From positions 6,177 to 70,176 of the forward strand of contig LZRT01000085.1 in NCBI GenBank assembly GCA_002159075.1: DNA of 64,000 bases, written 5' to 3'. This document shows positions 2,697 through 32,912 of the stretch, one piece after another. A model generated the notes under the pieces. It was not told where the DNA came from. It worked only from the letters and a program-made list of their open reading frames with translations, and did no database searches. The stretch is from Bacillus thermozeamaize (GTDB lineage: Bacteria > Bacillota > Bacilli > ZCTH02-B2). A program made the position numbers and the translations under genes. Each line of letters starts with the position of its first letter. Position 1 is the first letter of the stretch.

Positions 2697-3836
2697 ATGG
2701 CATTGAAAGGCAGAATCCTCGTTGCATGGTTTGTCTTGTCACTGATTGGCTTTGTTTTAACAGGATGTGGAGGCAACACGGAACGCACAACGACGGGCGA
2801 AGAGACGCCGGCAGGTCATGAACATGCCGCGCATCCGTCCGACTCCGGTGACCAGGGAGAAAAGAACGGCGCGCCGTATCAATTGCGAGTGGGTTATGCC
2901 ACATCGTTGGGTACACAGCTGGGCTTTATTGCCGAACATGAAGGTTTTTTCAAAGAGGAAAATCTGCAAGTTGATTTTATCCCTTTTCAGACGACGGCAG
3001 ATGGGCTGAATGCCTTGCAGGCAGGCAAGATTGATATCGGCATATCCTTCGGCACGGCCGGGCCTTTGACGTTTATTTCCAAAGGAGCTGATTTCGTCAT
3101 TTTCGGCGGGCACTTGGAAGGCGGAAGTCCGATATTTTCACGTCCTGAAGATCAGGAAAAATATAAAGATATTCAATCTTTCAAGGGGAAAAAGATCGGA
3201 ACCATTCGTTTATATACTGGTGACATCGTGTTCCGTGCGGCGCTGGCTGATGCCGGAATTGACTGGAAAAAGGATGTGGAAATCATCGAATTTAAAAATC
3301 CGTCGATGTTGATTGAAGCGATCAAAGCGCGAAAAGTGGATGTGGGGGTCGGGGCTCCGTCTAATCTGGGGATGGCCGAAGAGGCTGGCTTGGTTGCGGT
3401 GAACTGGAGCAACAATCTCTCCCCCGGACATGTATGTTGCCGTGTCGTGACGCGGGGATCGGAATTAAACGAAAAACAGGAGGCGTACAAACGGTTTGTC
3501 AAGGCGCTGATTAAGGCAGAGCGGGCAAAGGAACTGCAGCCTGAGGTTACGGTGACCGCAAGCCAACCGTATCTGAAAATGGATGAGGACAAGATCAGGG
3601 ACATCGTCTTAGAGCCCCACCAAAACAATGATTCCGATCCAAACAAAAAAGAAGTGGAAAAAATGTGGAGCGCGATGCGACAGATCGGTTATATTCCGGC
3701 GGATGTGTCTGTGCAGCTGGAAAACCACATCAATACCGACTTGTACGCAAAAGCTTTGGATGAATTGCTGAAAGAAAATCCCGGCGATCCTTTCTACCAA
3801 AAGGCAAAAGAACGCTTTGAAAAACAGAATTTGTGA
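2697..3836 (+). CDS. ABC transporter substrate-binding lipoprotein (NitT/TauT family)
   Basis: Signal peptide with lipobox LTGCGG. Periplasmic-binding-protein-like sequence. ATG sits 6 nt after AGGAG. Gene lies between the ATPase and the permease. Confidence 0.75.
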   Translation: MALKGRILVAWFVLSLIGFVLTGCGGNTERTTTGEETPAGHEHAAHPSDSGDQGEKNGAPYQLRVGYATSLGTQLGFIAEHEGFFKEENLQVDFIPFQTTADGLNALQAGKIDIGISFGTAGPLTFISKGADFVIFGGHLEGGSPIFSRPEDQEKYKDIQSFKGKKIGTIRLYTGDIVFRAALADAGIDWKKDVEIIEFKNPSMLIEAIKARKVDVGVGAPSNLGMAEEAGLVAVNWSNNLSPGHVCCRVVTRGSELNEKQEAYKRFVKALIKAERAKELQPEVTVTASQPYLKMDEDKIRDIVLEPHQNNDSDPNKKEVEKMWSAMRQIGYIPADVSVQLENHINTDLYAKALDELLKENPGDPFYQKAKERFEKQNL

Positions 3837-3850
3837 CGGGGGCAAGTGTT

Positions 3851-4612
3851 ATGGCACAGGCTATGGGGAGATATACATGGACTGGCTTGATCATTGTGCT
3901 TTTGTTTGTATTGTGGGAGGTCATGACGCATTTCGGCAAAATTCTAAATCCTGTTCTTTTTCCACGGCCGGTGGAAGTGTTTCGCGCGTTATGGGACAGC
4001 CGGATAGATTTGATGTCTGGTTTTTTGAGCTCGATGAAACTTTTTTTGCCCGCTTTTCTGCTCGCGCTGCTGCTAGGCGTTGCCGGAGGATTATATTTCG
4101 GGATGCACGATAAGGTCAGAGAGATTTTCATGCCGTTTTTTCATACGCTGAGCCCGATTCCTCCAACTATGTACATTCCGTACGCCATCGTATTGCTGCC
4201 CACATTCCAGACGGCATCCATTTTTCTGATCTTTGTCGGGGCTTTTTGGCCCATCTTTTTGGGAACGATTCAAGGGGTCCTGGTTATTGATGGGCGGTAC
4301 CTGGACAATGCGCGCGCTTTGGAATTGCGCGGGAAAGAACTGATCCGGACAGTGGTCTTGCCGGCAAGTATGCCTTTCATTTTGAATGGCACAGGGATTG
4401 CGTTGGGATTCGCGTTCATCGTTCTGACCATCGCAGAAATGTTTGGGGCGAAAGAAGGGATGGGGTACTTCATTCAATATTATTCCGATTTCTCGGATTA
4501 CAAAAATGTAATAGCCGGAATTTTTTTCAACTGCGCTGTGATTCTGTCCATCATGCTTTTGTTTGATCGGATCAAGAGACGATTGCTTTTTTGGACCGGC
4601 GATAAATCCTAA
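3851..4612 (+). CDS. ABC transporter permease (NitT/TauT family, SsuC-like)
   Basis: Six predicted TM helices. BPD-transporter EAA-like region (ELRGKELIRTVVLPASMPFI). Confidence 0.8.
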   Translation: MAQAMGRYTWTGLIIVLLFVLWEVMTHFGKILNPVLFPRPVEVFRALWDSRIDLMSGFLSSMKLFLPAFLLALLLGVAGGLYFGMHDKVREIFMPFFHTLSPIPPTMYIPYAIVLLPTFQTASIFLIFVGAFWPIFLGTIQGVLVIDGRYLDNARALELRGKELIRTVVLPASMPFILNGTGIALGFAFIVLTIAEMFGAKEGMGYFIQYYSDFSDYKNVIAGIFFNCAVILSIMLLFDRIKRRLLFWTGDKS

Positions 4613-4640
4613 CTATCTCAAACAATGGAGGGTGATGCAC

Positions 4641-5225
4641 ATGTCAGGCCATGATGCGTTCCGTGAATTTGATCAATCCTTGCGGGAAGTGCTCCGGAAC
4701 GCAACGGAGGATAAGGAGAGGATTGAAGGCGTGCGGCCTTTGTTGCAGAAATTGCTGTCTGTTCCCGGATTGCTGCCGCCTGCGTACCGTCGGCCTCATG
4801 CCGACAAATATGCCCAATATCTGCTATACAAACCGGAGGATGAAGCTTTTTCCGTCATTGCGTTTGTCTGGGGGCCGGGGCAGCAATCGCCGGTTCATGA
4901 TCACTTGGTCTGGGGACTGGTCGGGATGTATGAAGGCGCGATTGTAGAAAAACGGTTCCGGAGAGTGGATGATGGTTCGGATGCAAGCCGGGCCGTGTTG
5001 GAAGAAATTGAAACGGTGACGGCCAGCGTTGGGGATATTTCTTTTGTTTATCCCCGGCAAGCCGACATTCATCAAGTATTTAATCCGTTTGATGAGGTGG
5101 CCGTTTCGATCCATGTGTACGGCACAGATATCGGCAAGCAGAAACGACACATCTACGATTTGGAGACAGGCTCGATTCGGGAGGTGATTACCCGGCATGA
5201 CAACACGCGGGCCATTTACGCCTGA
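4641..5225 (+). CDS. Cysteine dioxygenase type I-like cupin (thiol dioxygenase; CDO/3-mercaptopropionate dioxygenase family)
   Basis: About 194 aa. HxH (SPVHDH) plus a later His (IHVYG) form the 3-His cupin iron site typical of bacterial CDO homologs. ATG sits 8 nt after GGAGGG. Confidence 0.55.
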   Translation: MSGHDAFREFDQSLREVLRNATEDKERIEGVRPLLQKLLSVPGLLPPAYRRPHADKYAQYLLYKPEDEAFSVIAFVWGPGQQSPVHDHLVWGLVGMYEGAIVEKRFRRVDDGSDASRAVLEEIETVTASVGDISFVYPRQADIHQVFNPFDEVAVSIHVYGTDIGKQKRHIYDLETGSIREVITRHDNTRAIYA

Positions 5226-5282
5226 ACAGAAAGGGTGAAACGATTTCGCCGAAGAATTTTCTGTTGCGAAAGGTGTGTGAAA

Positions 5283-6452
5283 ATGGAGACAATCGTTTCG
5301 TCAACAGATGCATACACAGAGAAAGTGAAACAGTTGGCGAGCGCGTTTGCCCGCACAGCGGCCGAACGGGATCGGCTGGGAGACACCCCTAAGGCAGAAC
5401 GGGATCAACTGCGCGCAAGCGGTTTGCTCAAGTTAATCATTCCTTCACAGTATGGGGGAATGGGAGCGAAATGGCCGGAAGCCCTGTGGGCCGTTCGGGA
5501 AATTGCCAAGGCGGATAGCTCGCTGGCGCATGTTTTCGGTTATCATCATTTGCAATTGGCAACGCCTCATTTCTATGGCACGCCGGCACAGAGGGCGCAT
5601 TATTACAGGGAAACGGCTGCAAAGAACTGGTTTTGGGGGAATGCCATCAATCCGAAAGACACGCGTCTCATTGTGTCCCGTGATGGCGATGGCTACGTCT
5701 TAAACGGCACGAAATATTTTTGTTCAGGCGCGAAAGATTCGGACGTTTTGGTGGTTAGCGCTGTGTCTGACGGAGACAGGAGGCCGCATCTATTTGTCCT
5801 GCCCTCAAATCGCACGGGGATTATTTTTCACGACGACTGGAACGGCATGGGCCAGCGCCAGACGGACAGTGGCAGCGTCAGCTTTCATAGTGTCCGCGTT
5901 CAACCGGACGAACACTTATGCCAGCTGGGGACCAATGGTTCCCCTTTTGCGACGCTGCGTACCGTCCTGACGCAGCTCATCATGACCCATATTTTTGTCG
6001 GCATTGCGGAAGGGGCTTTGGAAGAAGCGAAAAAGTATACGCATCAAACGGCGCATGTGCGAAAAGGAGATGTGCTGGAAGATCCGTATATATTGCGTCA
6101 TTATGGGGAGTTATGGTCCCGGTGCCATGCTGCCGGACAAATCACGAATCATGCTGCGGAGGTTTTCCAGTGGGCCTGGGAACAGCAGTTTGATTTGACA
6201 GATGAACAGAGAGGAAAGGCCGCCGTCACGGTTTATGCCGCCAAAGTCACGGCGATAGAGGTGGCGCTTCATGTGACGAACCGCATGTTTGACGTGATGG
6301 GAGCCCGGGCCGCCGATGAGAAATACCGTTTTGACCGTTATTGGCGAAATATCCGGACGTTTTCATTGCACGACTCCATTGATGTAAAGTTGCGCGAACT
6401 TGGAGCTTATTTTTTAAATGACACGTATCCGGTCAGCGGGTTTTATTCATGA
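5283..6452 (+). CDS. Acyl-CoA dehydrogenase-fold flavin oxidoreductase, SfnB/DszC-like (sulfur-acquisition family) or possibly an acyl-CoA desulfinase
   Basis: N-terminal pattern ERDRLGD...GLLKLIIPSQYGGMG...AVREIAKADSSLAHVFGYHHL matches the SfnB/DszC ACAD-type-2 family. About 389 aa. Embedded in a sulfonate-type ABC locus. Confidence 0.55.
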   Translation: METIVSSTDAYTEKVKQLASAFARTAAERDRLGDTPKAERDQLRASGLLKLIIPSQYGGMGAKWPEALWAVREIAKADSSLAHVFGYHHLQLATPHFYGTPAQRAHYYRETAAKNWFWGNAINPKDTRLIVSRDGDGYVLNGTKYFCSGAKDSDVLVVSAVSDGDRRPHLFVLPSNRTGIIFHDDWNGMGQRQTDSGSVSFHSVRVQPDEHLCQLGTNGSPFATLRTVLTQLIMTHIFVGIAEGALEEAKKYTHQTAHVRKGDVLEDPYILRHYGELWSRCHAAGQITNHAAEVFQWAWEQQFDLTDEQRGKAAVTVYAAKVTAIEVALHVTNRMFDVMGARAADEKYRFDRYWRNIRTFSLHDSIDVKLRELGAYFLNDTYPVSGFYS

Positions 6453-7363: not shown

Positions 7364-9553
7364 TTACCCGCTGTGGAAACGCACTTCACCCTGAATCTTG
7401 TATTTTTTGAGCTTTTGGTATAGGGCCGTGCGGCTGATGCCGAGTTTTTGCGCCGCGAGGCTCCGGTTGCCGCCTGCCTGCTCAAGCGCCTGCAGGATGG
7501 CCTGCTTTTCTACATGCGCGAGCAAGTCGCGATGATTGATCGTATGCTGGATGGACGGCTGCAATGGTTCAAAAGATGCCGGTTTGGGCAATCCAGGACT
7601 TTGGATCATTTCCTCAGTCCTTTTTTCTTTTTTTGAGGATCTGGAGAAAGAGGGGGAATGGAGTTCCTGTGGAAGGTGACGGGGTTCAATCCAGGAGCCG
7701 GAACCAAGATGCATGGCCCGTTCCAGGACGTTTTCCAGTTCACGGACATTTCCAGGCCAGGAATGCGCCTGCAGCAGCTGCAGCGTTTCCGGCGTGATGC
7801 CGATGACTTTTTTGTTCATTTTTTGATTTAATTTTTTAATGAAATGCTCGCATAACAGCGGGATATCATCGAGGCGTTCACGCAGCGGCGGAATGGTGAT
7901 TTGGATGACGTTGATCCGGTAGTAGAGATCCTCCCGAAATTTCCCCTCCTTGACCAACTGCCGCAGGTTTTGATTGGTCGCCGCCACAATCCGCACGTCC
8001 ACCGCCCTGGTTTTGGTATCCCCGATCCGCTCAAATTCCTGCTCCTGCAAGACACGAAGCAGTTTGGCCTGTAAAGCCGGTGGCATGTCGCCGATTTCGT
8101 CGAGAAAAAGCGTGCCCCGGTCGGCCAGTTCAAATTTCCCCGGTTTTCCCCCTTTTCGGGCGCCGGTAAAGGCTCCCTCGACGTAACCAAAAAATTCTGC
8201 CTCCAACAATTCGGAAGGAATGGCCGCGCAATTGACCTTAATAAATTTTCCTGTGCGGCCTGATGCCTCGTGAATGGCCTCTGCGAACAGTTCTTTTCCC
8301 GTCCCGCTTTCGCCGCAGATGAGGATGGTAGAGAAGCCTTTGGCGGCGAGGTATGCCTCTTTTTTGACGGAATTCATTTGGCCGTTTTGTGAAACGATCC
8401 GATCAAAAGCGTTTTCCTTTGTAATCCGGTTCAGTTCTCCCCGATAATACGTGAGTTCGCTTTCCAGTTGTTCCAGCCTGCGGAACACATCTTTCCATTG
8501 ATCCAGGCGATGAAAAATCAGTTTCGCAATGACCCCTTCCGATCGCCCTGACTGAACGATCGGGTGCAGGGTGATCACGCATTTCTTCCCCGCGATATCG
8601 CGGATTTCTCCTTCGATCCGCTCTTTTGCAGCCAGCACTTGTTGAACCGGCAGTTCCGGCGCGATGACAGCGGCAGGCCGGCCAACCACTGCTTCGTATT
8701 CAAGTCCATAGAGTTCCAAAAAAGCTGCGTTGACCATCGTGACGATCCCTTGTTCGTCCGTGATCAACACGCCGTCATAGGAGAGGCCCAATGCGCTCTG
8801 CAGGGTCCGTTCCAGTTTTTTTGTCGTTTCCAATTCTTTGGCTACCTGTTCAAAACTGGTGATGTCTTTCAGAACAGCCATGGCCCCCGTGATGTTTCCC
8901 CATTCCCGCAAAGGGATAAAGGATCCAATGACAGTGGCGTTTTTCAGCAGGATCTTTTTGGATTCCCGAACCTCTCCTTGTTCGATGGTAAGGGAAAAAT
9001 CCGCATTTAATTCCGGCAAAATCGCTCCGAGCCAGTTGCCGATCACTTCCTCCCGCGGAATGCCGAACAGCGACTCAGCCGCTTGGTTATACGTGATGAC
9101 CTTGTGTTCCAGGTCTACAGAGAGGACAGCATCCTGCAGGTGTTCCACCAACATGCTGTGCCGAGTGAGGAGCAATTCGGTTTTGTTGAGAAAGCCGCGA
9201 ATGATGTCTGCTTTCCCCAAAACCCCGACCGCACGTTGCTGTTCATCCAGTACGACACCGTGCGCGACGTTGTTTTCGGTGAGAATTTCCCTTGCTCTTT
9301 CGATGGTGGTTTCTTGTGAAAAGCTGACCACTTGTTTCCGAATGGCAGGGGTTACCGGGGAGTCGATGGGCGCTCCGGATAGCAGCGAACGGTAAATCGT
9401 ATATTTGGTCACGATTCCTTCCAATTTTCCTTCGGAATTGACGACGCAGGCAACGTCCGAGCGGTGTTTCAGAAAGGCTTTCAGACAATCGCGCATCGTA
9501 TGACGAGGCGTGATGGAGATAAAGTTGGCCGATAAAAAATCTTTTGTTTTCAT
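7364..9553 (-). CDS. Sigma-54-dependent transcriptional activator (EBP) with N-terminal CBS pair, PAS domains, AAA+ sigma-54 interaction domain and C-terminal Fis-type HTH
   Basis: AAA+ motifs [15 protein letters not shown] and GAFTGA (sigma-54 contact). C-terminal [24 protein letters not shown] start sits 6 nt after GGGAGGTG on the minus strand. Confidence 0.85.
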
Positions 9554-9586
9554 CGTCAACACCTCCCGGATCAGTGTGTTTCTTGG

Positions 9587-9600
9587 TTTACAAATGTAAA
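9587..9600. promoter_or_regulatory. Candidate upstream activator sequence (TTTACAAATGTAAA) for the sigma-54 promoter at 9696
   Basis: TACA-N2-TGTA inverted repeat about 100 bp upstream of the -24/-12 element. The same motif recurs upstream of three other sigma-54 promoters in the window. Confidence 0.4.
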
Positions 9601-25885: not shown

Positions 25886-26230
25886 ATGGCTCTGGTGCAA
25901 TTGCGCAAGATTTCACAGGTGCGCAGCGGTGACAAAGGGAATACGGTGAATATTGCCCTGTTTGCCCCCAATGAAGCGCTTTACCAGGTTTTTTTGCGGG
26001 AGGTGACTCCCGAGAAAGTGAAGCGTCATTTTCGGGGATTGATCGAAGGCGAAGTGATCCGGTATGAGGTTCCCAACTTGCTGGCGTTAAATTTTGTCTG
26101 CAAAGAGGCGTTGAATGGAGGAGGCTCGGCCTCCATCCATGTCGACAACCTCGGCAAGTGTTTCAGTTCCAATTTGCAGCGCATGGTGATTGAGGTGGAA
26201 GATGAGCTATTGATTTATTCAACTTTTTAA
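25886..26230 (+). CDS. DUF4387-like small protein (AtuA C-terminal domain encoded as a separate gene)
   Basis: 115 aa ORF translationally coupled to the DUF1446 gene (stop and start are adjacent). Such split arrangements are typical for AtuA homologs. Confidence 0.55.
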   Translation: MALVQLRKISQVRSGDKGNTVNIALFAPNEALYQVFLREVTPEKVKRHFRGLIEGEVIRYEVPNLLALNFVCKEALNGGGSASIHVDNLGKCFSSNLQRMVIEVEDELLIYSTF

Positions 26231-26496
26231 ACCATAGATTTTTGTAAAACAATAAAGGAGATCGCTAAGTGGAAAAACAGTGAAAAGTACCGAAGAATTT
26301 CTCAGCGACGAGAGAGATGCGTTTTATTAGCAAAAAATTGATATTCTAGGAGGTCAAATGAGCCTCTTTTTTTATTTTCTTTTTCCAAAATGTTTCTTCA
26401 TTTTAAGAGTCAATTGACAAAACAAAACATCTTATTTTTTCCAGGATGGGCAGACGAGACTTCTGTAATATTCATTAAATAGATGTAAAATTTTTA

Positions 26497-26510
26497 ATAC
26501 ATTTGTAAAA
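26497..26510. promoter_or_regulatory. Candidate UAS (ATACATTTGTAAAA, reverse complement of TTTTACAAATGTAT)
   Basis: Same TACA-N2-TGTA motif as at 9587 and 36457. Lies about 105 bp upstream of the sigma-54 promoter at 26611. Confidence 0.35.
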
Positions 26511-26610
26511 AGACATATTCGCGCTTTTTGCTGATTGATTTTATATGACTGTCATTTATAGCTATGATATCGCGCCTGTATTTTACAGTTTAAGATCCTC
26601 TTGTCCCGAT

Positions 26611-26626
26611 TGGCATCAATTTTGCT
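26611..26626 (+). promoter_or_regulatory. Sigma-54 (-24/-12) promoter, TGGCATCAATTTTGCT
   Basis: GG-N10-GC element lies upstream of the small ORF and amidase operon, inside an AT-rich region. Confidence 0.55.
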
Positions 26627-26864
26627 AAACATTAAGATAAGAAACAAAAGAATGATTACTGGAAGAACTGCTCTCTTTTGCTGGATAACAGCAAGGAAGG
26701 GAGATGAAATGCATAAGGATGGAGAAGAATTGCCTTCGGGGTTTTGAATAGCTGTCAAAGATTGTGCGAGCTTGATGGAATCCTGACGCAAAGAACGGTG
26801 AAATCCAGTAGACATTCGTATGGTCATCGAATGAATCGTTTTTGTAAAAGGGAGGCGAGCAGCT

Positions 26865-27053
26865 TTGGAACAAATGATTCGAGCCATTTTACAAGCGAAA
26901 GGCGTTCAGGCGCCGGAGCAAGATTATCCTATACTTATAGCACAATGGGAATCGATCTTGGCTATGAAACAGCATGCAATGAAGGCAAAGTTAAGGGATT
27001 TCGATATCGCATTGTGCCATACACTGAAAGGAGGAATGCCGAATGAAGAGTGA
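26865..27053 (+). CDS. Small protein (62 aa), possible GatC/AtzG-like partner subunit for the downstream amidase
   Basis: TTG start sits 9 nt after GGGAGG. Its 3' end overlaps the amidase start by 11 nt and contains the amidase RBS AAAGGAGG. Weak GatC-like pattern (..EQ..P.L.AQWESIL..). Confidence 0.4.
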   Translation: MEQMIRAILQAKGVQAPEQDYPILIAQWESILAMKQHAMKAKLRDFDIALCHTLKGGMPNEE

Positions 27054-28452
27054 ACTCGCGGCTAAGTCAATCGAAGAACTGGCTCCGCTCCTTCGCGATC
27101 GGAAAGTTTCTCCCGTAGAAGTTACGGAAGCCGTCATTCATCAAACGGAAGCCCATAACAAAAAAATTAATGCATACATTCAGATGGATGCAGATGCAGC
27201 GATGGAGGCGGCCAAAAATGCGGAGAAGGAAATCATGAATGGTAATTATCGCGGTCCTCTGCACGGCGTTCCGATGGCACTTAAAGATAATCTTTATTTT
27301 AAAAATGAAGTTGTCACAATGGGTTCAAAAATTCACAGACATTTCATTCCTTCCTATGATGCAACTGTTGTTTCCAAGTTAAAGGAAGCGGGGGTTATTT
27401 TTACAGGAAGGTTAAACATGCATGAATATGCTTGGGGAGCGACAACGAACAATCCGCATTTTGGTCCATGCCGCAATCCCTGGAATTTGGAAAAAATACC
27501 GGGTGGTTCAAGCGGGGGTTCAGGTGCGGCTGTAGCAGCTGATATGACAATCGCATCCCTTGGTACCGATACGGGAGGATCGATTCGCATTCCCGCTTCC
27601 GCGTGTGGCATCGTAGGACTTAAACCCACACATGGACGGGTCAGCAAATATGGTTGTTTCCCATTAGCATGGTCATTGGATCATATTGGCCCGATGACAA
27701 AAACGGTGAAAGACGCAGCCATTTTGTTGGAGGTAATTGCGGGATATGACGATAAGGATCCGACATGCATCAATGTTCCCGTTTCTGCTTATCGTTCGGC
27801 AATAACTGGAGATGTGAACGAACTGGTTATTGGCATCAATGAAAGCTACTTTTTTCGTGATGTCGATTCAGGTGTTGAAAAAAATGTTCGCAATGGAATT
27901 AGATTGCTAGAAGAAATGGGAGCGAGGGTGACATCTGTTGACATACCTTCCATCGAATTTGCGCCATTTGCAGAAATGATAACCATTATTTCTGAAGCCA
28001 GCGCAATTCACCATCAAAATTTAATTGAGCGCCGACAAGACTTCGGAGATGATGTGCGCATTTTACTTGAACTAGGAGAACTTGTCACAGCTGTAGACTA
28101 TCTGCAAGCGCAGCAAATCCGATATCAGTTGAATCATGATTTCAGGAAGGTATTCCAAAGCGTCGATGTCTTGATCACGCCTACACTTCCGTTTACACCT
28201 CCACTGATTGGGCAGGATACAGTGCTGCTAAACGGAAAAGAAGTGAACTTTTTAGACCATGTGATTCGTTTTACAGGACCAGAAAATATTACCGGATTGC
28301 CTGCGATAAGTGTCCCATGCGGGTTTAGTGAGGAGATGCCGGTTGGACTGCAGATTATTGGCCCCCCATTTAAAGAAGAAATCATCTTAAATGTAGCTTA
28401 TGCCATTGAACAAACCAATCCGTTGAAAGGAAAGAAACCTAATTTAAGTTAA
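27043..28452 (+). CDS. Amidase signature family enzyme (GatA/AtzE-like amidase)
   Basis: Amidase signature motif GGSSGGSGAAVAADMTIASLGTDTGGSIRIPAS. Length 469 aa. ATG sits 8 nt after AAAGGAGG. Confidence 0.85.
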   Translation: MKSELAAKSIEELAPLLRDRKVSPVEVTEAVIHQTEAHNKKINAYIQMDADAAMEAAKNAEKEIMNGNYRGPLHGVPMALKDNLYFKNEVVTMGSKIHRHFIPSYDATVVSKLKEAGVIFTGRLNMHEYAWGATTNNPHFGPCRNPWNLEKIPGGSSGGSGAAVAADMTIASLGTDTGGSIRIPASACGIVGLKPTHGRVSKYGCFPLAWSLDHIGPMTKTVKDAAILLEVIAGYDDKDPTCINVPVSAYRSAITGDVNELVIGINESYFFRDVDSGVEKNVRNGIRLLEEMGARVTSVDIPSIEFAPFAEMITIISEASAIHHQNLIERRQDFGDDVRILLELGELVTAVDYLQAQQIRYQLNHDFRKVFQSVDVLITPTLPFTPPLIGQDTVLLNGKEVNFLDHVIRFTGPENITGLPAISVPCGFSEEMPVGLQIIGPPFKEEIILNVAYAIEQTNPLKGKKPNLS

Positions 28453-28512
28453 AACCTAATTTGAGTAAATAATGAAACGTTTTCCCTTATTCACTGCCAT
28501 CACCGTTCAATC

Positions 28513-30687
28513 CTATCTGTCTCCGCTGCGGAAGCGAATTTCGCTTTGGATGTTGTGTTTCTTCATTTTCTGGTAGAGGGTGGCACGGCTGATGCCAAGA
28601 CGCTGTGCCGCCTGGCTCCTGTTGCCCCCCGATTGTTCAAGAGCTTGGAGGATGGCTTGCTTTTCCACGTGGGCCAACAAGGTTTGGTGATTGTCTGGTG
28701 TGATTGCCGGAAACGCTTCCGGTTCCTCGGACCGATCAGTGGTTGCTGGTGAAGGAGGCATTTTCGACAGTGAAATGGATGGCGTTTTCCGTTGCAGTTC
28801 ATCTGGCAAGTGATGAGGCTCAATCCAGACCCCTTCGGCGAGGTGCATGGCCCTTTCCAGGACGTTTTCCAGTTCCCGCACGTTTCCTGGCCAGTCATGC
28901 CGCTGGAGAAGTTCCAGTGTCTGCGGTGTGATGCCGATCACCTGTTTTTTCATCTTTTGATTGAGCTTTTTAATCAGGTGTTCAGCTAGGATGGGGATGT
29001 CATCCAAGCGTTCCCGCAATGGGGGGATGTGGATGTGAATGACATGGATCCGGTAGTACAGGTCCTCACGGAAGGTGCCCTGGCGCACCATCTGCCGAAG
29101 ATCTTTGTTGGTGGCGGCGATGATCCGTACATCCACCTGTCTGGTTTGGGTGTCGCCCACGCGCTCAAACTTTTGTTCTTGCAGGACCCGTAGCAGTTTG
29201 GCCTGCAAGGCCAGCGGCATGTCGCCAATTTCGTCAAGGAAGAGGGTGCCCCGATCGGCCAGTTCGAACTTGCCCGGCTTACCTCCTTTTCGCGCACCGG
29301 TAAAGGCGCCCTCGGCATATCCGAAAAACTCCGATTCCAACAATTCAGCGGGAATGGCGGCACAGTTGACCTTCACGAAGTTGCCGGGCCGGCCCGATTC
29401 CTCGTGGATGGCTTCTGCAAAAAGTTCTTTGCCCGTCCCGCTTTCTCCGGTAATGAGGACAGTGGAGGATCCTTCCGACGCGAGATACGCCTCATTTTTT
29501 ATTTTTGTTATTTTTTCATCTTTTGAGACGATCCGATCAAAGGCGCTTTTCTGGGTCATCCGATTCAATTCGCCACGATAATAGCTGAGTTCGCTCTCCA
29601 GTTGCTCCAGCCTGCGGAAGACGTCTTTCCATTGGTCCAATTTGTGAAAAATGATTTTGGCGATCGCGCCTTCGCACTTCCCGCTACGGATAATCGGTTG
29701 CAAGGTGACGACGCATTTTTTGCCGCGGATTTCTCTAATTTCCCCTTCGATGCGTCGTTTATGGGACAGAATTTCCTGGATTGGCAGCTCGGGTGTGACC
29801 ACCGCGGCCGGGTATCCCACCACCTCGTTGTGATCCAGTTGGTAGATGTCCAGGAAAGCAGGGTTGACCTTCGTGATCTTGCCGTGTTCGTCCGTGATCA
29901 TCACGCCGTCGTACGAAAGCTGCAGGGCGCTGTCAAGCGTGCGTTCCAGTTTCTTTGTCGTCTCCAGTTCTTTTGCCACATTTTCATATGAAGTGATGTC
30001 TTTCAGAACGGCTACCGCTCCGGTGATGTTCCCCCAGTCGAGAAGAGGGACAAAGGACCCGATGACGGTGACGGAGGCGAGGCGGATGCGGCATGGCTCC
30101 CGCCGTTCGCCTTTTTCCAGAGCGAGATAGAAATACTCATACAACTCGGGGAAGATGCTGTCAACCGGCTGCCCCAAAACCTTGTGGCGGGGGTAGCCGA
30201 ACAACTCTTCGGCTGCATGGTTATAGGTGACCACCTGATATTGCAGATTGACGGATATGACGGCGTCCTGAAGTTGTTCGACGAGGGCGCGGGTCTGATT
30301 CAGAAGCAACTCCGTCTCGCTGAGAAAGCCGCGGATGATATCTGCCTGTCCCATGACGCCGACGACGCGGTCTTGCTCATCCAGAACCACGCCATGCGCC
30401 ACGTTGTTCTCGATAAAGGTGTCCTTGGCAAATTCGAGCGTATCATCTTGGTAAAAGCTGACCACGTTGCGCCGAATCGCGGGAGCGATCGGGGCGTCCA
30501 GGGAGTGTCCGGCCAGGAGCAAACGGTATAGCGTGTATTTTGTGACAATGCCTTCCAGGTGGCCTTCGGAGTCGGTGACGCAGGCGATGCCGATCCGATG
30601 TTCAAGGAAAGCTTTCAGACAATCCCGTATCGTGTGCTCAGGCGTGATGGAGATGAATTCACGCGTCGAAAACTCCCGGACTAACAC
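28513..30687 (-). CDS. Sigma-54-dependent transcriptional activator (CBS-PAS-AAA+-HTH), paralog of the EBP at 7364-9553
   Basis: Same domain order as the first EBP and roughly 70 percent identical to it. Motifs [22 protein letters not shown] and C-terminal HTH. GTG start sits 6 nt after AGGAGGG. Confidence 0.85.
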
Positions 30688-30947: not shown

Positions 30948-32912
30948 ATGGAAATTTACGGACACGAAGAATCTTTGAAGATGATTCAGCAAGCGCGCTT
31001 GATCGAACCTTCTGAGTCGATTCGCAGTGTCTCCTACGTCCGCAGTATGAATGAGTATCAACAAAAGTATGAAAAGACAAAGGCGTCTCCCGAATTGTTC
31101 TGGGAAGAGGTGGCCAAAGAGCTCCGTTGGATGGCGCCTTGGAAGGAGGTGCTTACGGGCAGTTTGCCTGATTTCCAGTTTTTTCGCGGGGGCATGATCA
31201 ATATTTGCGACAACTGCGTGGATCGACACCTGGAGACGCACCGGCGAAACAAGGCGGCCATTATTTGGGAAGGAGAAGACGGAAGTTCCAAAGTTCTTAC
31301 TTACCAGATGCTGCACGACGAAGTGTGCCGTTTCGCCAATGTTTTGAAAAGGCACGGCGTGAAAAAAGGGGATGTCATTTCGGTTTACATGCAAAATTTG
31401 CCTGAGACGTTCATCGCGTTGTTGGCCTGTTTCCGCATCGGGGCGGTGTACAATACGGTGTTTGCCGGGTTTTCGCCGGAGGCGCTGCGTGAGCGGATCA
31501 ATGATTCCAAAGCCAAGATCCTGATCACCGCTGATGTCAGTTACCGCCGCGGGCGGGTGATTCCCCTGAAAGAAAACGCCGATAAGGCGATCGCAGAGGC
31601 GCCGACCATTGAAAAGGTGATTGTTTTTCGCAGGGGCGGCGTCGAGGTGCCGATGACCCCCGGCAGGGATCTCGACTGGTCCGAGGAAATGCAAGGAGCG
31701 GGCCGGGATTATCCATGCGAACCTGTGGAAGCGAACGAACCGGGCTTGTTGATTTATACCAGCGGCACAAGCGGGAAGCCGAAAGGGATTGTTCACGCAC
31801 ACGGCGGGTTTTTAGTGGGAACCTATGCCTATACCAAGTATTCCCTGGATCTGCAGGAGCGGGACATCTATTGGAATACCGCCGATATCGGCTGGTTGAC
31901 GTCGCACATTTTCGTCCTGGTGGGCGGACTGGCTTTGGGCGCGACGGTGATCTTGTATGAAGGGGCGTTGGATCATCCCCATCCGGGCCGTGTCTACGAA
32001 ATGATCGAACGCTACCGGGTAAACAAATTGTTTTCGGCACCCACCGCTTACCGGATGTTGGTCAAATTCGGCAAGGAGTTGCCGCAACAGTACGATCTGA
32101 GCAGCTTAGAGCTGTTCGCTTCCGTCGGTGAGCCGTTCAACCCCGAAGCCTGGGAGTGGGTGTACCGGCATCTGGGTGGGGGAAAAGCGGTCATTTCCAA
32201 TACCTGGGGGCAGACGGAAACGGGCGGCACGCCGTTGTGCGGCTTGCCCGGGGCGGTGCCGATGAAACCCGGTTCTTGCGGCGTGCCGCTTTTCGGCCAT
32301 GTATTGGACATTGTGGATGAAAAGGGAGAGTCCTGTCCCGATGGAGTGCCGGGAAACTTGATCATCCGCCGGCCGTTTCCCTCGTTGGCAAGGGATGTGT
32401 ATGGCGATCGGGAACGTTATCTCAACACCTACTTTTCACAGGTGCCTGGGGCCTATTTCACAGGGGACGCGGCAGTGCGGGATGCGGATGGGCACTATTG
32501 GGTGCTCGGGAGGACGGATGATGTGATCAATGTGTCCGGCCACCGCATTTCGACGATGGAAATGGAAAGCGCTCTCGTCGCCTATCCCAATGTCGTGGAG
32601 GCGGCTGTGGTGGAAAAACCTGATCCGATTAAAGGAGCGGTTCCCGTTGCCTTTGTCCTGCTTGAACCGGGTACGGAGAAGTCCAAGGAACTGGAAGAGG
32701 CGCTGATGAACCAAGTGGTTCAGGAAATTGGCGCCTTTGCCCGGCCGGCACGCATCTACCTCGTCGACGCCCTGCCGCGGACACGGAGTGGAAAAATCAT
32801 TCGCCGCATGCTGCGGGAGTTGGTGACGGAAGGACAAGTGAAGGGGGACAGGACTGGGCTTGAGGATGCCGACGCTTTGGAGCAGCTGATGAAAGATATC
32901 GGGAATGTGTGA
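30948..32912 (+). CDS. Acetyl/propionyl-CoA synthetase-like (Acs family, AMP-forming)
   Basis: 654 aa. Acs-type N-terminal region ...FFRGGMINICDNCVDRHLE. AMP-binding motif YTSGTSGKPKGI. ATG follows AGGGGAG. Confidence 0.85.
   Translation: MEIYGHEESLKMIQQARLIEPSESIRSVSYVRSMNEYQQKYEKTKASPELFWEEVAKELRWMAPWKEVLTGSLPDFQFFRGGMINICDNCVDRHLETHRRNKAAIIWEGEDGSSKVLTYQMLHDEVCRFANVLKRHGVKKGDVISVYMQNLPETFIALLACFRIGAVYNTVFAGFSPEALRERINDSKAKILITADVSYRRGRVIPLKENADKAIAEAPTIEKVIVFRRGGVEVPMTPGRDLDWSEEMQGAGRDYPCEPVEANEPGLLIYTSGTSGKPKGIVHAHGGFLVGTYAYTKYSLDLQERDIYWNTADIGWLTSHIFVLVGGLALGATVILYEGALDHPHPGRVYEMIERYRVNKLFSAPTAYRMLVKFGKELPQQYDLSSLELFASVGEPFNPEAWEWVYRHLGGGKAVISNTWGQTETGGTPLCGLPGAVPMKPGSCGVPLFGHVLDIVDEKGESCPDGVPGNLIIRRPFPSLARDVYGDRERYLNTYFSQVPGAYFTGDAAVRDADGHYWVLGRTDDVINVSGHRISTMEMESALVAYPNVVEAAVVEKPDPIKGAVPVAFVLLEPGTEKSKELEEALMNQVVQEIGAFARPARIYLVDALPRTRSGKIIRRMLRELVTEGQVKGDRTGLEDADALEQLMKDIGNV

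Follow-up and report, generated by a model that had tools for sequence, protein, structure and literature searches.

A small gene overlapping a Bacillales amidase gene and its product, a predicted GatC-like partner of the enzyme

The window analysed here is a stretch of 64,000 nt from Bacillus thermozeamaize (contig LZRT01000085.1, positions 6,177-70,176), in which a gene encoding an amidase of the amidase-signature family is preceded and overlapped by a short open reading frame (ORF), referred to below as the mini-ORF. The two genes and their translation signals are arranged as follows:

26850-26855, plus strand: Shine-Dalgarno sequence of the mini-ORF (GGGAGG), 9 nt upstream of its TTG start
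26865-27053, plus strand: mini-ORF, 62 aa, TTG start, predicted to encode a GatC-N-terminal-like amidase partner (from the ORF listing, direct reading, conservation and models)
27030-27034, plus strand: Shine-Dalgarno sequence of the amidase gene (GGAGG), within mini-ORF codons Gly56-Gly57, 8 nt upstream of the ATG
27043-28452, plus strand: amidase-signature amidase, 469 aa (PF01425, E=2.6e-127)

The 3' end of the mini-ORF overlaps the start of the amidase gene by 11 nt. An earlier interpretation made from the letters of the window (the sequence-only reading) had described both this overlap and an amidase ribosome-binding site (RBS) inside the mini-ORF; the ORF listing and direct reading agree on the former, and the latter lies where it was proposed. 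Taken alone, the mini-ORF protein had no sequence match in Pfam, NCBIfam or PDB (phmmer, hmmsearch).

When 5.8 billion proteins were searched with the mini-ORF sequence alone, only two proved closely related. As its own sequence retrieved so few relatives, the amidase was used for retrieving loci instead, and yielded 80 genomic loci of Bacillaceae, Planococcaceae, Brevibacillus and Aneurinibacillus, with amidase identities of 62-94%. The 82-locus set used throughout consists of the genomic loci, two metagenomic loci and the window. In all 82 loci, an ORF of 56-63 aa with its own Shine-Dalgarno sequence lies directly upstream of the amidase gene, and in nearly all of them its stop and the amidase start overlap by 4, 8 or 11 nt. 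The sequence-only reading had staked its case on the mini-ORF being kept next to amidases in related genomes, which is what these loci exhibit. A profile search gave approximately 240 clusters at 90% identity, all labelled 'hypothetical protein' and devoid of Pfam domains, while an exhaustive hidden Markov model (HMM) scan of 1.84 billion representatives gave 129 clusters at 50% identity, nearly all of 57-65 aa and none of them GatC-sized or fused to an amidase. All clusters of the family (~130 at 50% identity) come from Bacillales.

The dN/dS ratio of the mini-ORF is 0.02-0.16 in its own frame versus 0.35-2.4 in the other two frames, i.e. purifying selection is confined to the frame of the mini-ORF itself. 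Its pairwise divergence correlates with that of the amidase (r=0.90). Judged by these comparisons, the mini-ORF is a genuine, conserved, co-inherited and translationally coupled gene that has escaped annotation, and it is nearly certain that its product is a real protein, expressed together with the amidase and linked to it in function. A 100-aa ORF that overlaps the mini-ORF in another frame (26744-27046) was rejected as noncoding, given its off-frame omega of 0.35-2.4 and its absence from Aneurinibacillus danicus. The same frame is present in a sister metagenome-assembled genome (MAG), designated L003, and is probably no gene.

The best-conserved feature of the family is a C-terminal 'PGGD', and its conservation is largely a nucleotide constraint imposed by the embedded amidase RBS. 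The conserved GG is encoded as GGA-GGN or GGG-GGN in 74 of the 82 loci, 8-9 nt before the amidase start, and the other eight, which lack GG, spell a Shine-Dalgarno sequence by other codons. As the GG codons are the Shine-Dalgarno sequence of the amidase gene, both the RBS inside the mini-ORF and the coupled translation of the two genes are confirmed, and the tail motif was consequently dropped as evidence of protein function. In L003 (5823-6020), the mini-ORF carries a small indel close to its 3' end, which alters the C-terminus (…MPDEERTRG) and makes the amidase overlap 23 nt long; the extreme tail therefore tolerates change.

An invariant GG that is a Shine-Dalgarno sequence, embedded in a stop/start overlap of 4, 8 or 11 nt, would suit a mini-ORF that is a mere translational-coupling device, which delivers ribosomes to the amidase start and whose peptide is functionless. 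We consider this very improbable, as such a device would not account for the low in-frame dN/dS, for the length kept at 56-63 aa in 82 loci, or for the conserved residues L9, G13, L24 and W28 and the D-I-x-L motif, all of them distant from the Shine-Dalgarno sequence. The confident AlphaFold models of the protein (see below), with helices reaching a predicted local distance difference test score (pLDDT) of 94, also speak against it.

The partner amidase matches PF01425 over its full length and possesses the Ser-cisSer-Lys residues of the amidase signature family: the catalytic Lys81 (MALK81D), GGSSGGS at 154-160 and Ser179 (GTDTGGS179IRIP) are all present. It scores 395 bits with the NCBIfam GatA model, for which the cut-off is 481, and the two AtzE models (TIGR02715 / NF006631) give it 375.4 bits (cut-off 425.75) and 382.3 bits (cut-off 461). 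As it remains below the cut-offs of both GatA and AtzE, it belongs to neither family, though it is closest to both. Its best PDB relatives are six GatA chains followed by AtzE, with which it shares 34% identity. By these matches, the amidase has as its nearest characterised relatives the two families in which a GatC-type subunit is known to be required. In the absence of AtzG, its non-catalytic and obligate partner, AtzE is insoluble, and atzG-atzE clusters have been described in Proteobacteria only (PMC6219798). A 2024 review of amidases leaves small subunits unmentioned.

The sequence of the window amidase is identical to that of OUM86843.1, from a 'Bacillus thermozeamaize' MAG, which is annotated as GatA. 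Many members of the clade carry the public label GatA or glutamyl-tRNA amidotransferase subunit A. Some gene calls in the clade are 487 rather than 472 aa long, with a start placed 15 codons too early, which enters the small ORF.

AlphaFold2 modelled the window protein (79-sequence alignment, pLDDT 74) as a helix (2-11), a loop, a second helix (18-40) and a low-confidence tail. A replicate with a consensus-like family member, P0141 (121-sequence alignment, pLDDT 83.9 and up to 94 within the helices), gave helices 5-11 and 18-40 and an extended tail. When the first model was compared by Foldseek with 350,542 PDB chains, GatC chains occupied ranks 1-4 (2f2a_C, 2dqn_C, 9a62_B and 2df4_C) as well as 11, 26 and 33, with root-mean-square deviations of 1.1-2.2 Å over 40-44 columns and TMq of about 0.6. 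The first-ranked chain for the P0141 model was again a GatC, 3h0l_C. Because GatC had been named beforehand and GatC-type chains make up about 1/10,000 of those searched, a first rank in both searches is very unlikely to arise by chance. The fold of the small protein is predicted to resemble the N-terminal, amidase-binding part of GatC.

Profile-profile comparison by hhalign, in which GatC was represented by a five-sequence alignment, gave P=0.053 with a shallow profile of the family and P=0.0044 with a 116-sequence profile. The alignment spans 39 columns (mini-ORF 3-41 versus GatC 7-45), and its best register, the one put forward in the sequence-only reading, pairs AQWESIL of the mini-ORF with TLESIL. 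The value obtained with the larger profile surpasses that of the AtzG-GatC control (see below).

The arrangement of the locus resembles that of AtzG-AtzE from Pseudomonas sp. ADP (PDB 6C62), as the sequence-only reading had proposed: in all 82 loci, the window included, a small ORF lies immediately upstream of an amidase-signature amidase. The small proteins are of similar length (68 aa in AtzG, 62 aa here), share the order of helix, loop, long helix and tail, and neither has a counterpart of the C-terminal third of GatC; AtzE, like the window amidase, is an amidase-signature enzyme close to GatA. AtzEG is a heterotetramer. The two systems differ in that a gap of 2 nt separates atzG from atzE, in contrast to the overlapping genes of the window, no atzH/hpxZ gene accompanies the pair, and the amidase falls short of the AtzE family cut-off (375 vs 426 bits). 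They also differ in host (Bacillales versus Proteobacteria) and in context, which here is general amide or nitrile catabolism rather than that of cyanuric acid or oxalurate, and the small proteins show no detectable sequence relationship.

The likeness to GatC-GatA lies in GatC being the best fold and profile match of the small protein and GatA the best sequence match of the amidase. GatC is longer (~95 aa), and the alignment reaches only its residues 7-45, the C-terminal segment being missing here. The C-terminal part of GatC contacts GatB in GatCAB structures, and neither gatB nor a genuine gatC was found in the window. The amidase does not reach the cut-off for GatA, and its context is catabolic and sigma-54 regulated. 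A third point of comparison is provided by the amidases of nitrile hydratase clusters, in which the closest relatives of the cassette (loci L001, L002 and L004) are situated. One such enzyme, that of Rhodococcus sp. N-771 (3a1i, 3a1k), appears at ranks 13 and 34 among the fold matches of the first small-protein model (44 columns, TMq 0.60). It is a single chain of 521 aa, unlike the pair described here, and no nitrile hydratase genes were found in the window. If the match falls within its N-terminal helices, these might correspond to the small subunit in fused form.

Based on the predicted fold, the gene arrangement and the kinship of the amidase, we think it likely that the mini-ORF encodes a non-catalytic, AtzG-like structural subunit. 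Given the presence of the mini-ORF in 82/82 loci and its predicted GatC-like fold, the amidase is probably a two-subunit enzyme. The most fitting description of the small proteins is that of a new Bacillales family of amidase partners resembling the N-terminal part of GatC.

Several results weigh against this interpretation. PF02686 (GatC) matched none of 38 family members at E<=10 and none of 116 at E<=1, no member matched PF13318 (AtzG-like), the NCBIfam GatC model or HpxX (NF033624), and the family profile found no GatC or AtzG chain among PDB sequences. In control searches, authentic GatC of Staphylococcus aureus matched PF02686 at 3.8e-23 and authentic AtzG (pADP-1) matched PF13318 at 7.9e-09. 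By their defining HMMs, the mini-ORF family is outside the GatC and AtzG-like families. Comparison of the family with AtzG by hhalign gave P=0.19; as AtzG and GatC themselves, whose structural relationship is accepted, gave only P=0.15, sequence methods are unable to decide the relationship to GatC. The Foldseek E-values (1.5-3.2) are singly not significant, the helix-loop-helix is a simple motif, and AtzG (6C62) was not among the fold matches of the mini-ORF models. In addition, the best-conserved C-terminal feature, GG, is owed to the Shine-Dalgarno sequence and not to protein function. Finally, the literature reports recombinant amidase-signature urethanases of Lysinibacillus, which may be members of the clade and may work alone. 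The name of the Lysinibacillus fusiformis urethanase was on no cluster member examined. The claim of a GatC-like pattern thus survives in the AQWESIL/TLESIL register but not at the level of the family models, which leaves the likeness at the level of the fold. There, the proposed GatC-like shape is supported by the top ranks of GatC for two models, with the reservation that the individual E-values are not significant and that AtzG was not recovered.

That no homology to GatC or AtzG is detectable in sequence, and that the fold matches are singly non-significant, would also be in line with a protein that forms no stable subunit but serves the amidase as a dedicated chaperone of folding or assembly, or regulates its activity or stability, the GatC-like shape being convergent. 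The small protein has a much higher rate of evolution than the amidase (mean p-distance 0.59 vs 0.34), and nitrile hydratase clusters are known for small accessory or activator proteins, one of which is encoded in L001. We nevertheless regard this explanation as unlikely: the tight translational coupling implies near-stoichiometric synthesis, GatC came first in two independent fold searches, and the amidase is nearest to precisely those two enzymes for which GatC-type subunits are known.

The profile and fold searches also bear on the idea that the mini-ORF encodes a precursor peptide of the NHLP type (a ribosomally synthesised and post-translationally modified peptide, RiPP) or another small protein, such as an SpxO-like anti-adapter, located next to the amidase for other reasons. 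Four of 116 members weakly matched an NHLP-clan model (E=0.017) and two matched SpxO, the precursor SonA ranked second in the second fold search, and a 'GG' motif and nitrile hydratase contexts of some members would suit such a peptide. All HMM matches were far under the cut-offs, and SpxO was rejected at 12.6 bits versus a cut-off of 107. The precursor was rejected as well, since the GG is the amidase RBS, only 3-5 residues follow it, with no Cys/Ser/Thr core, and an hhalign comparison with the nitrile hydratase alpha subunit reached P=0.055 across 17 columns. Genes for maturation or export are absent from every neighbourhood examined. We therefore give this idea hardly any credence, and return to the small protein as a probable structural partner of the amidase.

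GC content is 0.30-0.51 at 26150-28550 and 0.52-0.65 on both sides. At third codon positions (GC3), it is 0.43 in the small ORF and 0.38 in the amidase gene as opposed to 0.60-0.71 in flanking host genes, a comparison that the sequence-only reading had called for. Similarity to other genomes is distributed unevenly: L003 is ~92% identical over the whole neighbourhood, whereas the 82% identity with A. danicus (L004) and L001 is confined to 26848-28453, and the 90% identity with L002, in which the small ORF follows a nitrile hydratase accessory gene, begins at 26806. No similarity with the donor-like loci was found at 26231-26805. The intergenic region 26231-26864 has a GC content of 0.35, within the range of the other sigma-54 intergenic regions of the host (0.32-0.43).

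The sequence-only reading had taken all of 26231-28460 for a low-GC insert carrying its own promoter. The drop in GC and the foreign GC3 stand, but the insert is smaller: because the intergenic regions of the host are equally AT-rich and the donor similarity begins at 26806, the whole block was ruled out as an insert, the acquired part is placed at ~26806-28455, and the promoter and upstream elements are host-type. Composition and junctions indicate transfer of exactly the pair. Its proposed arrival by horizontal transfer in an acyl-CoA regulon is upheld by the GC3 values, by the donor-like junctions and by the acyl-CoA genes around. This segment and the features that surround the two genes are as follows:

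~26806-28455, plus strand: horizontally acquired two-gene segment (similarity boundaries, GC3)
26348-26375, plus strand: terminator-like hairpin (7-bp stem, 7-nt loop) and T-run, closing the AtuA operon (module A)
26498-26507, plus strand: upstream activating sequence (UAS) of the regulon, near-palindrome TACATTTGTA, candidate site for CBS-PAS sigma-54 activators (recurrence at four promoters)
26611-26626, plus strand: sigma-54 -24/-12 promoter TGGCATCAATTTTGCT, an exact match to TGGCAY-N5-TTGCW
26627-26864, plus strand: 5' leader, 238 nt, ~97% identical to that of the sister MAG L003
28513-30687, minus strand: EBP2, a CBS-PAS-sigma54 AAA+-HTH activator and candidate regulator, convergent with the amidase gene

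The hairpin (26348-26368) lies 118 nt past the end (26230) of an AtuA-ferredoxin-like gene. As it closes the upstream AtuA operon, the mini-ORF and the amidase gene form their own transcription unit. Exact matches to TGGCAY-N5-TTGCW number four in the window, all on the plus strand (9696, 26611, 30851 and 36537), compared with 0.16 expected from shuffles, and 0 of 100 shuffles reached four. A near-palindromic 10-11-mer, TACAAATGTA / TACATTTGTA, lies 78-136 nt upstream of each of the four promoters, with copies at 9588, 26498, 30715 and 36459. Both the -24/-12 promoter and the regulon UAS that the sequence-only reading had claimed are accordingly present. The four-promoter regulon has the compact palindrome TACA-WW-TGTA in common. 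EBP1 (7364-9562, minus strand) is a paralogue of EBP2 with the same CBS-PAS-AAA+-HTH architecture. With its GG-N10-GC element, a shared UAS, EBP2 adjacent and EBP1 nearby, the locus fits a putative sigma-54-dependent unit.

The surrounding 40 kb encode acyl-CoA dehydrogenases, a carboxyltransferase, a biotin carboxylase, several AMP-ligases, enoyl-CoA hydratases and AtuA, in addition to TRAP and SSF transporters, and an acyl-CoA synthetase operon begins at 30948. The region has the appearance of an acyl-CoA catabolic region of the Atu/Liu type, with the two paralogous CBS-PAS activators as its putative controllers.

The leader (26627-26880) folds better than shuffled sequences (z=-2.75; 2 of 200 shuffles as good) and has no Rfam match. 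It contains a long-range inverted repeat, formed by 26645-26663 with 26804-26822. At its positions 5603/5604, L003 is without exactly 274 bp, corresponding to 26372-26645 of the window, which is the stretch that holds the UAS and the sigma-54 promoter. Either a genuine deletion, by which the cassette would be silenced in that strain, or an artefact of MAG assembly could account for this absence; no flanking direct repeats are evident around the stretch.

Among the genomes compared, the pair is constant and its flanks are variable. In A. danicus L004, L001 and L002 it is flanked by nitrile hydratase beta, alpha and accessory genes and a cobalt transporter, and elsewhere by an AmiS/UreI channel, an FmdA/AmdA acetamidase or a PucR regulator (14 Lysinibacillus loci). 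These variable neighbours indicate contexts of small-amide catabolism. Sigma-54 promoters precede the mini-ORF in 12 of the 82 loci (the window and 11 others), including A. danicus, at -230.

L001 (2158-10741), and similarly L004, contains a complete nitrile-catabolic cluster with the small ORF, the signature amidase and nitrile hydratase beta, alpha and accessory genes, preceded by the sigma-54 promoter at -230. The L001 cluster further encodes a second amidase (nitrilase superfamily, CN_hydrolase), a ClpB-like AAA protein, CbiMNQO cobalt transport and a PAS-sigma-54 activator. In 15 genomes (L005, L007-L010, L012, L013, L015-L018, L023, L026, L051 and L063; ~3200-5600, minus strand), a divergent sigma-54 activator with a periplasmic-binding sensor of the AmiC type (Peripla_BP_5/6) precedes the cassette, and nine of these genomes have consensus -24/-12 promoters 97-156 nt upstream of the small ORF. 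From its gene content, this combination of AmiC-type activator and promoter looks like an amide-sensing sigma-54 circuit, of which we know no characterised example.

We suggest the following course of events for the locus. The two genes would constitute a module that is inseparable across Bacillales and that was presumably acquired from a low-GC, Aneurinibacillus-like nitrile hydratase cluster, the hydratase genes being left behind. The acquired module may then have been set behind a host sigma-54 promoter with the regulon UAS, on which one of the sigma-54 activators would act. Through translational coupling, the 62-aa protein would be made together with the amidase and would bind it as GatC binds GatA and AtzG binds AtzE, and it is probably needed for the folding, solubility or assembly of the enzyme. 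Hydrolysis of an amide by the enzyme would release ammonia and a carboxylic acid; the latter might supply the adjoining operons for acyl-CoA synthetase and acyl-CoA catabolism. The locus would thereby represent a clean case of a foreign two-gene cassette placed under a pre-existing sigma-54 regulon.

In annotation, biocatalysis and metabolic reconstruction, amidase-signature amidases are usually handled as single-gene enzymes. To our knowledge, AtzEG and its proteobacterial relatives are the only published exception outside tRNA transamidation. The present data suggest a second family of small partners, sequence-unrelated to AtzG, comprising ~130 clusters at 50% identity without a Pfam or NCBIfam model and going with an entire Bacillales amidase clade. 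Whether this widespread clade of supposed stand-alone amidases in fact consists of obligate two-subunit enzymes, with a highly diverged, GatC-derived and previously unrecognised partner, is in our estimation evenly balanced; on the same reading, and with the same even balance, the clade would take in the amidases of nitrile hydratase clusters and numerous genes wrongly labelled GatA.

Should binding be confirmed, a name and an HMM for the family would be warranted, the small gene should be included when these thermostable amidases are expressed heterologously, and both the 'GatA' annotations in the clade and the gene calls that enter the small ORF would need correction. The inheritance of a GatC-type subunit by GatA-like amidases would also gain in generality. 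If true, the two-subunit reading would mean that the 'vestigial transamidosome' architecture, so far that of AtzEG in a few proteobacterial pathways, also occurs in general amide catabolism of Firmicutes, and GatC-type partners would be ancestral and common among GatA-proximal amidases.

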